A stretch of DNA of 64,000 nt from a virus, in the IMG/VR virus record IMGVR_UViG_3300017748_000001, positions 1-64,000 of that record. One strand, 5' to 3'. Positions 1 to 5,798 of this stretch are shown here, piece by piece. Position 1 is the first letter of the stretch, and the number at the start of each line of letters is the position of its first letter. Under the pieces are notes generated by a model. The model did no database searches. It worked only from the letters and a program-made list of their open reading frames with translations, and was not told the origin of the DNA. A program made the position numbers and the translations under genes.

Positions 1-1421
1 AAGTTGTAGACCTCAAAAGGAATTCCAACTCTCTTACAGAATGTTGCGAGAACGATAGTCTGCTTGACAGTGTTAAGAACAGTAGATCCCATAGATCCGC
101 TCCAGTCTACTACCATAACCATGCCGTGATTCTTGCCATCCGGAGTGTTGGTCTTGCGAAGGAAAATATCCTCATTGACCTGATAACTCCATAACTTAGA
201 AGTGTTGATCGCACCAGTCTTGGCTTCTGAACTCAGTGCCTGAGCGCGAGCAGCCTTCTTCATTTCGAATTCTTTTACGAGATAAGAAATAGTCTTTGAG
301 TTTTCTGAGATCAGTTCTTTGAGAGAAGGAAATTTTAAATCTGGCGCATCGGCGTGACTAAATTGTTGACGATGAACTACATCCAACGCAGAGATTTGAT
401 GTTCAAAATCTGACTGAACTTCTTTGTAATCGTGAATGTAGTCCGAGAACTCGTAGTTGTGGTGAAGATTAATATACACACTTTCGCGGGCATTCTCATT
501 GACCATATCTTTGAGGTTGTCTTCTAAAGACTGACTGGTTTCTGAAGAGAATTCGTCAATGCGAATGCTGGTTTGTTGGCCATCTTGCGGATTTGATTTA
601 TCGTCGGAAGATGTTGTAGACTTCTGCTCTTTTTGATTGGTTTCTTCTCCGTTAGATTCTTCTGAAGATTCTTCTGGAGTTTCATCCGATTCTTCTTCTC
701 CCTCTCCGGATGCAGAAGTCTCATCAAATTCGGTCGCATCTTCATCAGAAGGCATTTCCTGAGTCTCGCCATCTTGAGGTTCGTTGTCGCCCCCAGACTC
801 GGAGGGAGACATTTGTTGCTGAGGTTGCTCCTCTTGCTTCTCTTTTAGATACTTGTAAAGATCTTCGCAGATATCCGCAACTTCAGAATAAGTTTCTGCG
901 TCATCTATTCTACGAATGAATAACATTTCTTCTGAATTGAAGATTGATGGTGCGTATAGGTTTAACGCATATCGCAACTTAAAGAAGAGATTGATGCGGT
1001 CAATGAAATTACGAGATTGAATAGGTTGACCCTTAAGACTGAAAAAGTCTCTATCATAAAGATCTTGATACGCATTCTTGAAGGGAGCCTGAAGACCTTG
1101 AAACTTTCGCTTCATTAACTTCTCAATTCGAGCATCTTCCACTACGTTAAGAAACGCATGGTTGGATCGCTTCATAGCGTCTTCTAGAACTTCTAGATCA
1201 CTTGGAGTGTATAGTGCGTGAGCAACTTCATGACCAACAAAAAGGTCATATATATCAGGAGTATATGATTCATCTTTCCAGATAGGAAGAAGTAAGAGTC
1301 GAGTCTCAACATTGAAACTTGCTGTCACAACTTCTGAGGAGTGTTCGACGCGAATGTTTTCTTCCGCAAGTAGACGAGCAAGAAGACTCTTGGAATTCTT
1401 GGAGACGGTAACTTCGGTCAT
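1..1421 (-). CDS. HExxH metallopeptidase-like plus vWA (CobT-like) protein, 3'-partial
   Basis: Not in the ORF track because it runs off the window. Manual translation from ATG 1421: MTEVTVSKNSKSLLARLLAEENIRV...LFVGHEVAHALYTP...NVVEDARIE, then an acidic spacer, then MVMVVDWSGSM (MIDAS DxSxS). The frame stays open to base 1. Confidence 0.85.
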   Translation of the reverse strand, partial: MTEVTVSKNSKSLLARLLAEENIRVEHSSEVVTASFNVETRLLLLPIWKDESYTPDIYDLFVGHEVAHALYTPSDLEVLEDAMKRSNHAFLNVVEDARIEKLMKRKFQGLQAPFKNAYQDLYDRDFFSLKGQPIQSRNFIDRINLFFKLRYALNLYAPSIFNSEEMLFIRRIDDAETYSEVADICEDLYKYLKEKQEEQPQQQMSPSESGGDNEPQDGETQEMPSDEDATEFDETSASGEGEEESDETPEESSEESNGEETNQKEQKSTTSSDDKSNPQDGQQTSIRIDEFSSETSQSLEDNLKDMVNENARESVYINLHHNYEFSDYIHDYKEVQSDFEHQISALDVVHRQQFSHADAPDLKFPSLKELISENSKTISYLVKEFEMKKAARAQALSSEAKTGAINTSKLWSYQVNEDIFLRKTNTPDGKNHGMVMVVDWSGSMGSTVLNTVKQTIVLATFCKRVGIPFEVYN

Positions 1422-1450
1422 TTGGTTCTCTATCAACAAACTATACAGCT

Positions 1451-1532: not shown

Positions 1533-2372
1533 TTATAAATCCTTTTTATGCCAGTCTCTGCAGACATCCATCATTCTTTTGCGTCCTAAAAAATTAATAT
1601 CTGGATCATCCAATAAAACCTCAAATATCTTAGGTATGCCCGCATTAAGATGTAAATTTTCATGGTTCTTAATAGTAAACATTTCTAATTCTGGGAAATC
1701 CGCTCGAACTGGTTCTTTTTGACGAGGGCGATTTAGTTGAGGCCAAGTTTTATTCCAAAACAATTCCCTCACTTTAGGATCAAGATATGGAGTAACATGA
1801 ATTTTATTATATTTTTCTACAAGATTTGTGTGTTGACTTAAACCAGCACAATCTCCATCAAGATATGCAGTTCTAAACTGACTCCAAGTTACTCTTGGAG
1901 TGCCCGAAGGATTTTTTCTATGAACTTTTATATACTTCTTTGTTGTCGATATATCTCTGTATCTCTTGTATGCCTTTTTCCCTGGCTGAAAGTAACCATC
2001 AGAACCCCATCCAGTCAAAACATATTTTTGTTTTACTTCTGGATAAACATACAAAAATGGAAATACACACTCAAAGTGAGTCTTTTTTCTACATCCATGA
2101 TCTACAAGAATTTTCCAGTCATCTAGTAAATTTTCAGTTGGAACTTCTATGACAGAACAATCCCATCCCATCTTATCAGAAACTTCTTTTGCCTTAAGAG
2201 AATCATATGAAGGAGAATTTTTGAGATTAAATGTGTACGCAAAAATTCTTTTCCCTACATCTTGAGCTGCGATGGCCACAGATATAGAATCAACTCCACC
2301 AGACAACATAACTGCAACTTCACTTTCTGGCACATTGTTCTTAATGTGATCCTGCAGTATTTTTCTAATCAT
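1533..2372 (-). CDS. Asparagine-synthetase-like ATP-dependent amide ligase (synthetase domain only)
   Basis: PP-loop MLSGGVDS, LTGWGSDGYF (cf. GEGADELF) and TPYLD (cf. VPFLD). At 279 aa it has no N-terminal glutaminase domain. Confidence 0.8.
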   Translation of the reverse strand: MIRKILQDHIKNNVPESEVAVMLSGGVDSISVAIAAQDVGKRIFAYTFNLKNSPSYDSLKAKEVSDKMGWDCSVIEVPTENLLDDWKILVDHGCRKKTHFECVFPFLYVYPEVKQKYVLTGWGSDGYFQPGKKAYKRYRDISTTKKYIKVHRKNPSGTPRVTWSQFRTAYLDGDCAGLSQHTNLVEKYNKIHVTPYLDPKVRELFWNKTWPQLNRPRQKEPVRADFPELEMFTIKNHENLHLNAGIPKIFEVLLDDPDINFLGRKRMMDVCRDWHKKDL

Positions 2373-3891
2373 TAGCTAATCTTATTGGGGATGATCCGTG
2401 ACTTCGGTTTTCCTTTCTGGTCTCGACATAAGTATCAAAAGGATCAGAAGTGTAACTTTCCTTGTATGACAATTTACCATGGCCTTTTTCATAATCGCCG
2501 GTATGAAGTCTTTCGGGGTCAATTTCCGTTCCGGCTGGAGTCATCCAATCCTGACTTACTGCTGCCTCTGTTTTTTCATTATCGCTAACTACCCTAGGGC
2601 CGCGTTTTATCAAAAATTCTTCTATTTTAAAATTCTCAGTTAATAATTCGTTGCATTTTCGGGCATTTCCCATTTGTATTCCGGTTATTAATTTTTTATA
2701 CTGACTTTCTACTGAGCTTCCTGTCTTTGTAGTAGTGTACTTCTTTTTAGATTTCCAGAGTTTATTGTGCTCCTTAGTCAGCTTATCATAAAGTGCATTG
2801 AGATTTTTTTCTGGAATTACATATCCGTCGAGATACCAATATTTATAGATGTGGTAAAGATGTTGAATAACTATCTTATTCTTAATTCCCAGATATCGAC
2901 AAGAGCCTCTTTTATTTTTAGTTTTGAAAATTATGTCATCGAAAAAATGGTTAATAAACTTAATTGCAGCATTAACTTCCGAATCTTCCAGTTTATCTAT
3001 TTGGTAAATAAGGTCAAGTTTTTTGTTGGTTACTGCGGCCTTTGTCCAATCATAAATAAACATCCAAAGTAATTGTGCAAACCAAGCATCTGCCTTTCTC
3101 ATTGTCAATGCGTTATCGGTAAACCACTTACACCCTTCCTTTATAAGATATTCTTTGTATTTCTTTGGCAGTTCTCTAACCTTTTCTGCAACATAAGATG
3201 TAGAGGTGTTTCTGAACAGTTCTTTAGTAAAATGAACTCCCTCATTAATAGACCTACATATGCTAGAACATTTTTCGCGGCCAATATTAGTGAATACTAC
3301 AGTCGATATTTCGATGTGATTATGAAGATGATATTTCATCTTTTCGTCTAAAGTCGAGTATTTATCACAACTTTCGTCAACCTGTATAAGTTCGTATTTA
3401 TTGTCTGGAGTTATAACCTGATATGTCCCATGAGGAACAGTTATCTTGTCATGAATAAATCCAAGTAAAATTTTACCTTCATTTTCACCAGACGTAACAG
3501 AAGAGCCAGAAACGGTGCCAAGGGTCTCTTGTCTATTCCAAGAGTCTAAAACCATATATCCACCAGAAATACCTTCAGGAAACTTTTTTATCCACTTTTT
3601 CCAGTACTCTATATCTTCTTTTTTGTTGGCCTTCACAGCCGCTTCCCAACAACTCACAATACACGCAAATACAAAAGAAGTCACCGCGCTTCCGGACAGT
3701 AAACTTCTAATATATGCTTCAGCGTCTTTTTGAGACCAACGTCCAGAGCCACCATTTTTACTAGGAAAATCCGAATTAGCTTGATATGCTGGATCTGAAA
3801 GTAATGCAAGTGTTGCACATACATTAATATATTGTAAAAAAGTTAAAACTTCTTTTTTAGAATTTGAATAAAGATTGGTTTCGCTTTTCAT
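2365..3891 (-). CDS. DUF262 (ParB/Srx-fold, GmrSD-like) protein with degenerate C-terminal HNH-like motif
   Basis: WSQKDAEAYIRSLLSG...YMVLDSWNRQETL resembles the DUF262 DGQQR motif; the C-terminus GH...TRKENRSHG resembles HNH. Start moved to ATG 3891, which overlaps the upstream TGA (ATGA). Confidence 0.55.
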   Translation of the reverse strand: MKSETNLYSNSKKEVLTFLQYINVCATLALLSDPAYQANSDFPSKNGGSGRWSQKDAEAYIRSLLSGSAVTSFVFACIVSCWEAAVKANKKEDIEYWKKWIKKFPEGISGGYMVLDSWNRQETLGTVSGSSVTSGENEGKILLGFIHDKITVPHGTYQVITPDNKYELIQVDESCDKYSTLDEKMKYHLHNHIEISTVVFTNIGREKCSSICRSINEGVHFTKELFRNTSTSYVAEKVRELPKKYKEYLIKEGCKWFTDNALTMRKADAWFAQLLWMFIYDWTKAAVTNKKLDLIYQIDKLEDSEVNAAIKFINHFFDDIIFKTKNKRGSCRYLGIKNKIVIQHLYHIYKYWYLDGYVIPEKNLNALYDKLTKEHNKLWKSKKKYTTTKTGSSVESQYKKLITGIQMGNARKCNELLTENFKIEEFLIKRGPRVVSDNEKTEAAVSQDWMTPAGTEIDPERLHTGDYEKGHGKLSYKESYTSDPFDTYVETRKENRSHGSSPIRLAND

Positions 3892-4574
3892 TTTATAGCA
3901 ATTGCTCCTACAAATAAGTGGTTTCTCCAAAAAGGTTGGACTTCTTGAAATCCTGCTTCATACATCATGGATAGTAGATCGTCCCAGTGCATTGGTTTCA
4001 GCATGGATCTCAAAGTATACTCTTTATCCATAATATCTTCACAAGAAAACTCTTTTCTTTTGTGGTCATAAAAGAGGAATGTGAGTATCTGTTCTAGTTC
4101 TGGAGATGAGGCATAAGTCTTCTCAGAAAAAACGAATGCTCCGCCGGGAAGAAGAGAATCATATATTGAATCCAGAATAGATTGTCGATCTCGTTTTGGA
4201 ATAAACTGCAAAGTAAATATACTCGTTATGAATGAAGAGTCAACAGGAAATATAAAGTTTCTCACATCTTGAAAATGTAAACTGAGATTAGAATCAATAT
4301 ATTCTTCTTCTCTAGATTTCATATCTTCCGCAAATCCATCTGCATTTTCAACTCCATGATACTGTGCGTTAGGAGCCGATTCCTTATTCTGGTCAATCAT
4401 TGCCCCCAGAGTTTTTCCAGTAGAACAACCAATATCAACTACACTAGTATCATTTTCTACAAAGTATCTAGACATTGCAACTATATCATCATGAAGCGAT
4501 GAATAGTGACGAATAGATGCATCTATGTGAGCATCAAATCCTTCTTTTCTGTGTGCAAAAGTAAAGTCTGCCAA
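3888..4574 (-). CDS. cmoA: CmoA-like carboxy-S-adenosylmethionine synthase (class I SAM fold)
   Basis: FTF..FD.HI..SI..Y, VVDIGCSTG, FTLQF, PGGAFVFSEK, HKR and AGF..V..FW match E. coli CmoA as I recall it, over the full length. TTG start directly after the MTase stop, with a GGAG SD. Confidence 0.8.
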   Translation of the reverse strand: MADFTFAHRKEGFDAHIDASIRHYSSLHDDIVAMSRYFVENDTSVVDIGCSTGKTLGAMIDQNKESAPNAQYHGVENADGFAEDMKSREEEYIDSNLSLHFQDVRNFIFPVDSSFITSIFTLQFIPKRDRQSILDSIYDSLLPGGAFVFSEKTYASSPELEQILTFLFYDHKRKEFSCEDIMDKEYTLRSMLKPMHWDDLLSMMYEAGFQEVQPFWRNHLFVGAIAIK

Positions 4575-5762
4575 TTAAATTTTCTCCAATACATTTTCAT
4601 AGATAGACGCAGCAATTGACTGCATCATTTTTGGCGGAACCATTCTACCAATTCTTTCTGATTTCTGGTTCCATTTTCCGGTCAACTTAAAGTCATCAGG
4701 TAAACTCTGAATCCTCTTCAATTCGCCCAGAGTGAGTTTTCTAGGTTCTGCCCAATGGAATGCACCTGCTGTGGTGTCATTACTCCCCATCGCCGTTAGC
4801 GTGGGTGCTGGGGCGTATCTGGATACTCTTTTGAGGTTAAAGTGGTGTCCCTTCGGATGATAGTCCATTCCAGTCAAAACTTTCTTCGGATCGTCTTCCA
4901 TCTTACTTCCGGTCTGTAACCAATACGCAGTTTTACTAAACTTCTCTGTGAGATAATCAACTTCTTCTTGGTCATATTCTAAATCTATCAGAGCGTCCAT
5001 CAGGGGAATTACATCTCTAGATGGTTGTGGGAAAATATTTCCAACAGTCATAAAATTAAGACCAGCCTTCTCAGTAATGTCATTTCTAACACCGATAAAG
5101 ATGACCCTAGTTCTTGTCTGAGAAACACCATAGTATCTTGCGTCCATGACTTGAGATGAAACATCATATCCTATCTTTTCGAACTCGTTAAGAATTTTAT
5201 TATAGTATTGTTTCGCCTCGCCAATGGTTAGTCCTTTAACATTCTCCGCAACAATAACTTTTGGCTTGATGTCATTTGCAACTCTAAGGAACTCAAAGAA
5301 AAGATCTTCGATATTCTCTACCATCTTCCCATCAGAATAATTCTTGGTCTGACCCCAGCCATCGGAATGTTTTCCAGACACATTGACTATAGTTGTTTCT
5401 CCAAATAGATCAACCATCTCTTCCTTTTTAACATTGTGAGATAGTTTCCCTGCAACCGAAAATGCGGAACACGGTGGCGAACCGTCAAGGATATCTAACT
5501 CGCCTACATCCAATCCGACAATATCCAGAAAGTCTGATCCACTCAACTCTTTAATATCATTAGGTAGTATAGGAGTATTTGGGTAGTTTTCTGCATAGGT
5601 ATTTTGTGCTTCTTCGACAAATTCGTTCACACACAATACATTACCGCCAGCTAGACGATAACCAGTACTAGAACCACCGCCTCCTGCAAATGTGGATATG
5701 ACGTTAAACTTATTTTGTGCGGATGCAGTAAATACATCCTTAAGGGTATAAGGCTGATACAT
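4575..5762 (-). CDS. C5-cytosine DNA methyltransferase family enzyme, probable carboxymethyltransferase
   Basis: Motif I FAGGGG, IV GSPPC, VI ENV, VIII YGVSQTRTR; motif X is GRMVPP instead of GN(A/S)VP. Start placed at ATG 5762 from the promoter geometry (alternatives 5771 and 5798). Confidence 0.9.
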   Translation of the reverse strand: MYQPYTLKDVFTASAQNKFNVISTFAGGGGSSTGYRLAGGNVLCVNEFVEEAQNTYAENYPNTPILPNDIKELSGSDFLDIVGLDVGELDILDGSPPCSAFSVAGKLSHNVKKEEMVDLFGETTIVNVSGKHSDGWGQTKNYSDGKMVENIEDLFFEFLRVANDIKPKVIVAENVKGLTIGEAKQYYNKILNEFEKIGYDVSSQVMDARYYGVSQTRTRVIFIGVRNDITEKAGLNFMTVGNIFPQPSRDVIPLMDALIDLEYDQEEVDYLTEKFSKTAYWLQTGSKMEDDPKKVLTGMDYHPKGHHFNLKRVSRYAPAPTLTAMGSNDTTAGAFHWAEPRKLTLGELKRIQSLPDDFKLTGKWNQKSERIGRMVPPKMMQSIAASIYENVLEKI

Positions 5763-5769
5763 AGTATTC

Positions 5770-5798
5770 ATTATCTCAAATTTTTTAGTCGTTGTCAA
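5770..5798 (-). promoter_or_regulatory. sigma70-type promoter of the modification operon (probably leaderless)
   Basis: TTGACA (5798-5793), 17 nt, GATAAT (5775-5770), 7 nt, ATG 5762. Confidence 0.7.

Follow-up and report, generated by a model that had tools for sequence, protein, structure and literature searches.

A candidate carboxy-SAM-dependent DNA cytosine carboxymethyltransferase gene in an operon-like cluster with cmoA-like and cmoY-like genes of a T4-like phage

We propose that the gene on the minus strand at 4575-5771 of the window, by which we mean the whole 64,000-nucleotide stretch of viral DNA analysed here, is an orthologue of cmoX, and that its product very likely uses carboxy-SAM (Cx-SAM) to write 5-carboxymethylcytosine (5cxmC) into phage DNA. 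What the window itself contributes to this assignment is sequence, motifs, homology, gene order and the co-occurrence of two genes across related loci. The signature at its centre, an Arg in place of the Asn of methyltransferase motif X, was reported in December 2025, as were the pairing with CmoA and the ligase step, and no new principle is put forward here. In that work, Yang et al. (Nat Commun 2025, PMC12783734) describe a DNA carboxymethylation pathway in Synechococcus phage S-B43, in which phage CmoA makes Cx-SAM, the C5-methyltransferase (C5-MTase) homologue SpCmoX transfers the carboxymethyl group of Cx-SAM to C5 of cytosine in GC motifs, and CmoY, an asparagine-synthetase-like ligase, attaches glycine to the carboxyl group thus introduced. 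The window carries counterparts of all three genes, together with a 508-aa gene that lies between two of them:

4575..5771, minus strand: cmoX, candidate DNA cytosine C5-carboxymethyltransferase (PF00145, match to 8YF3, tblastn match to the S-B43 gene)
3888..4574, minus strand: cmoA, predicted carboxy-SAM synthase (52% identity to the characterised SpCmoA, E 3e-79)
2365..3891, minus strand: 508-aa protein (P0003/P0124), ParB-like and HNH-like by AlphaFold2 model and VIA-align
1533..2372, minus strand: cmoY-like gene, predicted ATP-dependent amide ligase (PF00733, 43% identity to SpCmoY)
3-1439, minus strand: gene after the operon, running off the start of the window (PHROG 459 "peptidase", 9e-142)

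The motif X arginine and the match to SpCmoX

The cmoX frame is open from 4575 to 5798, where its first codon is a TTG, and translation probably starts at ATG 5771 (Met10) or ATG 5762 (Met13) rather than at that TTG. Met13 matches the N-terminus of SpCmoX and the 395-398-aa lengths of homologues. Counted from the TTG, the motif X arginine is residue 385; counted from Met13, it would be residue 373. Two motifs carry most of the argument:

4632..4649, minus strand: motif X, GRMVPP, with Arg385 aligned without gaps on SpCmoX Arg350
5469..5480, minus strand: motif IV, SPPC, with predicted catalytic Cys110, the equivalent of SpCmoX Cys98

From 4649 to 4632 the minus strand reads GGT AGA ATG GTT CCG CCA, that is G-R-M-V-P-P, with Ile preceding. 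The original prediction had read the AGA codon at 4646-4644 as the Arg of an IGRMVPP motif, and both the minus-strand letters and the translation of the open reading frame agree with it exactly. It had also described the other catalytic motifs as intact, and they are: SPPC occupies residues 107-110 and is invariant among eight diverse homologues, ENV (motif VI) lies at 5246-5238, QTRTR (motif VIII) lies at 5120-5106, and motif I is present as well (FAGGGG, 5690-5673). Consistent with this, the product matches PF00145 (4e-57) and the NCBIfam model TIGR00675 (Dcm).

Where canonical C5-MTases have Asn in motif X (GN[AS]VP), the window cmoX has Arg instead. When the C-terminal 71 residues are aligned without gaps to solved enzymes, those of the DNMT1 type read IGNAVPP at this place and 8YF3 alone reads GRMVPP; HaeIII, too, places an Asn there. 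The Arg is kept in 79 of 79 informative close relatives from IMG/VR and is invariant across a 20-sequence homologue alignment, which argues that it is real and not an accident of sequencing.

The product of the window gene matches SpCmoX (8YF3) over residues 15-407 by phmmer (E 1.5e-144, ~60% identity), and tblastn with the S-B43 gene gives 59% identity to the window cmoX (1.8e-141); megablast of the window region against GenBank phages returned no match, relatives there being found at the protein level only. In the 1.9 Å crystal structure of SpCmoX, Arg350 stands in place of M.HhaI Asn304 and touches the carboxymethyl group of Cx-SAM; wild-type SpCmoX takes Cx-SAM only, and the R350N variant takes neither SAM nor Cx-SAM (PMC12783734). 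Window Arg385 falls on Arg350 within an ungapped block round motif X, and the Cx-SAM contacts Phe25, Glu47, Phe48, Asp69 and Cys98 of SpCmoX correspond to window Phe37, Glu59, Phe60, Asp81 and Cys110. CmoX candidates have been defined by SPPC plus R350 at a network threshold of 1e-70, and their census stands at 5,615 (PMC12783734). The window cmoX product carries both residue signatures and matches at E ≤ 1e-70.

The original prediction went on to call this enzyme a natural carboxymethyltransferase. That reading stands, by homology to SpCmoX and by the link to cmoA described below; as a new inference it does not, having been published in December 2025. The related expectation that the Arg should face the sulfonium substituent is borne out for the homologue, by the contact seen in crystal 8YF3, and not by a model of the window protein itself. 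The AlphaFold2 model of the cmoX product, with a mean pLDDT of 50.2, is too poor for comparison with HhaI or MpeI, likely owing to the shallow alignment supplied to it (20 sequences, the homologues being 75-95% identical). An R-to-N exchange, which had been suggested as a way of comparing SAM and Cx-SAM preference, would probably not switch the cofactor of the window enzyme, a switch being contradicted by the precedent of SpCmoX R350N.

Compared with SpCmoX, the window enzyme carries an insertion of 17 residues just behind the loop of the catalytic Cys (window 5376-5447, minus strand; about residues 118-141 of the open reading frame). The insertion appears to be common to the 395-398-aa marine relatives, and the length of a 379-aa subgroup fits its absence. 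Given this insertion and the ~60% identity, target specificity or kinetics could differ from those of SpCmoX. The CmoY-like protein consists of the asparagine-synthetase ATP-binding domain alone, without the glutaminase domain (PF00733, 7e-16, residues 3-166 of 279 aa), and its alignment to SpCmoY (E 6e-74, beyond the 1e-56 cluster threshold of PMC12783734) includes an internal 18-residue insertion.

These departures bear on the possibility that the window encodes a true CmoX whose pathway ends unlike that of S-B43, with a non-GC target or with an amine other than glycine, giving another 5cxmC amide. Moderate divergence of CmoX between motifs VIII and IX points the same way, as does the prediction that several clusters of ligases use other amines (PMC12783734). 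However, by E-value the window CmoX and CmoY both lie inside the S-B43 clusters, and the related phage C5-MTases associated with TET/JBP enzymes, whose route runs from 5mC to 5hmC, likewise prefer GpC (Burke et al., PNAS 2021, PMC8256090). We regard a different pathway end as unlikely, if still worth bearing in mind.

Motif X residue and neighbouring cmoA

The gene that abuts cmoX appears to encode the enzyme that such a CmoX would need. The top NCBIfam match of the window CmoA is TIGR00740 (CmoA), over its full length (9e-27); its score of 94.2 bits lies below the equivalog cut-off of 193.3 bits of that model, which was built on bacterial tRNA-pathway enzymes. Its best PDB matches are the CmoA/YecO structures 1IM8 and 4GEK (~2e-18).

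The original prediction had raised the co-occurrence of the GR motif with a neighbouring cmoA across phages. We examined 343 informative IMG/VR loci collected round five different phage C5-MTases, with the motif X residue taken from tblastn alignments and the flanks searched with five CmoA queries. The residues are distributed as follows:

Arg: 163 loci (window clade 79, TurkishDelight clade 80, CL131 search 4)
Leu: 80 loci (Melnitz clade)
Met: 80 loci (phi18:3 clade)
Asn: 20 loci (CL131 relatives)

The co-occurrence is pronounced. A cmoA accompanies the Arg-type enzymes at 151 of 163 loci, rising to 68 of 69 where at least 1.5 kb is available on both sides, and it accompanies the Leu-, Met- and Asn-type enzymes at none of 180 loci (0 of 99 with adequate flanks). 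Where an Arg-type enzyme has a cmoA, the latter mostly lies downstream of it on the same strand (135 of 151 loci; median gap 14 bp). The Fisher p of 6e-47 for Arg versus cmoA is nominal and inflated, since the sample amounts to about six clades and not to 343 independent events. Among GenBank phages, Arg occurs with a CmoA-like gene nearby in S-B43, S-CRM01, Moraxella phage Mcat8 and Streptomyces phage TurkishDelight, whereas Melnitz (Leu), CL131 (Asn) and phi18:3 (Met) have no CmoA-like gene. In the phi18:3 clade (Cellulophaga phage phi18:3, L090, 7974-9053; L196-L275) motif X reads IGMSVPP at 80 of 80 loci, and no cmoA is nearby.

The Arg loci at which cmoA was missing are mostly cut contigs. 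Real exceptions are L070, L073 and L113, each with no cmoA within several kilobases, and Erwinia phage vB_EamM_Y3 (L088, 8004-10133), whose 709-aa Arg-type enzyme adjoins a ParB-like gene and likewise has no cmoA within several kilobases. These four loci indicate that the Arg does not strictly need a phage-encoded synthase. Such enzymes may depend on the CmoA of the host or on a phage copy located farther away, and in E. coli host CmoA was enough for CmoX (PMC12783734). Two further loci, L114 and L115, encode enzymes of the Asn type without cmoA, and the best-scoring reference for these is the Arg-type TurkishDelight enzyme (47% identity).

The Arg-type enzymes that stand without an adjacent cmoA could be read as a sign that the window gene encodes an ordinary SAM-dependent 5mC methyltransferase, in which the change from Asn to Arg is neutral and the CmoA-like gene acts on host tRNA or depletes SAM. 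The canonical C5-MTase motifs, all intact, and the matches to the Pfam and NCBIfam Dcm models would suit such an enzyme equally. We consider this highly improbable. Wild-type SpCmoX, which is ~60% identical and has the same Arg, takes Cx-SAM and not SAM (PMC12783734); the Arg does not vary among the 79 close relatives, nor within the remote TurkishDelight clade; adjacency of cmoA divides the Arg-type enzymes from the others almost without exception where the flanks are long enough; and cmoB was neither required nor reported in the S-B43 system (PMC12783734). That the gene is a decaying or inactive methyltransferase remnant has next to nothing in its favour except the non-canonical motif X, against which stand a full-length open frame with every catalytic motif, translational coupling of cmoX to its neighbours, and thousands of close marine-metagenome relatives (6,909 related proteins at E ≤ 1e-10).

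A Cx-SAM-dependent CmoX is the reading we retain, and the survey carries a practical consequence for annotation. The motif X Arg predicted cmoA adjacency almost perfectly and can serve as a reliable rule for phage genes annotated as 'Dcm'. The survey is an independent check of that prediction, and the sister clades with Leu, Met and Asn never occur with cmoA in this sample.

The operon and its ParB-like/HNH-like gene

The window belongs to a 127-kb IMG/VR record that represents part of a T4-like phage. Close by are gp46/47-like genes and UvsW, and no second C5-MTase was found in the record. On the coding (minus) strand the genes run in the order cmoX, cmoA, 508-aa gene, cmoY. The TAA of cmoX is followed directly by the TTG of cmoA, the stop of cmoA and the ATG of the 508-aa gene overlap as ATGA, and the 508-aa gene and cmoY share 8 nt that include the cmoY ATG. 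Because the four genes abut or overlap in this way, they point to a single translationally coupled operon. The gene that follows (3-1439) has no match in Pfam or NCBIfam. At the other end lies a putative promoter:

5770..5798, minus strand: sigma-70-like site (TTGACA, 17 nt, GATAAT with TG extension), a consensus match only

With 11 of 12 matches, this site is the best in the region; it overlaps the TTG at 5798 and ends 8 bases before the Met13 ATG. A scan of the region for promoters and terminators gave no more sites than expected from shuffled sequence. If the site is real, the cmoX message would be almost leaderless.

One feature of the operon is unpublished, namely the 508-aa ParB-like/HNH nuclease-like gene that is tied to cmoY. 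Its product has no match in Pfam, NCBIfam or PHROG, and Foldseek of the model against the PDB gave none at E ≤ 0.001. Fold matches of the AlphaFold2 model (pLDDT 90.7) indicate that the protein begins with a ParB/sulfiredoxin-like (DUF262-like) domain, continues through a helical middle region and ends in an HNH nuclease domain. Specifically, VIA-align superposes residues 436-508 on the Cas9 HNH domain (Z 8.8, rmsd 1.9, 72 residues), residues 5-219 on SspE (Z 7.3) and ParB-N (Z 6.7), and residues 11-420 on BrxU (Z 7.2). An exhaustive search recovered 81 representatives of the family at 50% clustering, compared with only 4 in a word-indexed search. Across a 41-sequence alignment Q37, R51, W52, D116, N119, R120, N216, G470, H471 and N495 are invariant, and weak Pfam matches among these relatives are to GmrSD_N (7) and HNH (4), the same families to which the atlas neighbours of the protein point. 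The DGQQR-like motif of GmrSD/SspE-like DUF262-HNH nucleases reads D-S-W-N-R in the 508-aa protein.

The 127-kb record holds one copy of this family, at 2365-3891. DNA-level comparison with the two loci closest to the window (L052 and L005, CmoX identity 97%) shows that the 2.35 kb comprising the 508-aa gene and cmoY (window 1537-3890) is absent from both, with flanks 85-95% identical, and that both have the peptidase-like gene (window start 1439) immediately after cmoA. In L005, moreover, cmoX and cmoA are separated by about 550 additional bases. Elsewhere the 508-aa gene and cmoY are found together in another arrangement: at L029, L046, L057, L078, L359 and L360 the cluster runs gene-cmoY-cmoX-cmoA, its first member being a relative of the 508-aa gene that overlaps the cmoY next to it. 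The relatives at L359 and L360 (P0131, P0134) have 29-30% identity. On the short contigs L356 and L357 the relative is likewise followed by a partial cmoY-like open reading frame.

The association is partial from either side. Among 30 cmoY loci whose upstream sequence is long enough, only 8 have a gene of the 508-aa family. Among the relatives, those at the Melnitz-type loci L294, L302, L332 and L333 lie downstream of TET, with no cmoA, and P0136, P0139, P0144 and P0151, on short contigs with small unknown genes, have no cmoY after them within the contigs. The link to cmoY thus holds for the nearer subclade only, whose members always overlap a cmoY immediately downstream of them, the distant relatives having no cmoY following them. 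In Methylophilales phage Melnitz-1 (L087, 2758-6838) the C5-MTase is followed by TET/JBP, a 427-aa gene and then a P-loop kinase-like gene; the 427-aa gene, which occupies the place of a 508-aa relative, has no match to the 508-aa family profile.

We tentatively entertain the idea that the 508-aa protein belongs to cytosine-hypermodification clusters as an undescribed fourth component, rather than riding along as a passenger, which we hold to be possible rather than probable. It may be a nuclease that senses modification and cuts DNA that is unmodified or has been left at 5cxmC. If so, cmoY would be its immunity gene, and competitor phages without the ligase would be excluded. Alternatively, it may be a ParB-type activator that would load the ligase on double-stranded DNA, as ParB176 is such an activator for a phage thymine dioxygenase (PMC13229309). 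A third reading is a selfish HNH element with cmoY as its cargo. A predicted complex of the 508-aa protein with CmoY scored 0.00, which speaks neither for nor against binding. The nuclease-like gene of this variant operon may have to do with the ways in which phages police, or profit from, DNA whose modification is at an intermediate stage.

Proposed pathway and comparison with known systems

Catalysis, cofactor choice, the contact between Arg and the Cx-SAM carboxylate, the GC target and glycine ligation have been demonstrated for the S-B43 homologues only (PMC12783734), and it is by analogy with these that we infer what the window enzymes do, which motif they target and which amine is joined. 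In the mechanism we propose, CmoA would convert SAM and host prephenate to Cx-SAM. CmoX would then act on phage DNA after replication, with Cx-SAM and not SAM as its cofactor. Cys110 is expected to attack C6 of a flipped-out cytosine, and the resulting C5 carbanion would accept the carboxymethyl group from Cx-SAM, whose carboxylate would be paired with Arg385 in the position of the motif X Asn. A chorismate mutase (PF01817), by which the phage might supply prephenate, was not found in the 127-kb record, which is ~63% complete.

The closest known system is that of S-B43, which has in common with the window the fold, SPPC, ENV and QxRxR motifs of CmoX, its motif X Arg and the partner genes cmoA and cmoY, as well as the type of phage and a T4-like Kyanoviridae context with gp46/47 and UvsW close by. 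The order of the genes differs, being cmoX-cmoA-(508-aa gene)-cmoY in the window and cmoA-cmoY-cmoX in S-B43, where the 508-aa type of gene is absent from the 11-kb stretch round the cluster; S-CRM01 has cmoA-cmoX only.

Canonical enzymes such as M.HhaI, M.HaeIII and Dcm have the mechanism and motifs I, IV, VI and VIII in common with the window enzyme, but their motif X carries Asn (GNAVP) and their cofactor is SAM, where the window has Arg. An engineered counterpart is M.MpeI N374K (Wang and Kohli), in which, as cited in PMC12783734, a basic residue at the motif X Asn leads to use of Cx-SAM. The likeness to CmoX lies in that basic residue at that position, and the equivalence of the position in MpeI rests on PMC12783734 and on the motif X alignment to other solved enzymes. 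By the same account, M.MpeI N374K is engineered, acts on CpG, has Lys and keeps some use of SAM, whereas CmoX is natural, has Arg, takes Cx-SAM only and acts on GC (in S-B43).

The Melnitz-type C5-MTases form a sister clade of CmoX at 36% identity, with SPPC in both and post-replicative cytosine hypermodification as a common theme. Their motif X has Leu (IGLMVAP at 80 of 80 loci), cmoA accompanies them at 0 of 80 loci, and the next gene encodes a TET/JBP dioxygenase (PF12851), in contrast to the Arg and the cmoA of the window. Across these two sister clades, CmoX and Melnitz-type, the motif X residue tracks both the cofactor and the downstream chemistry.
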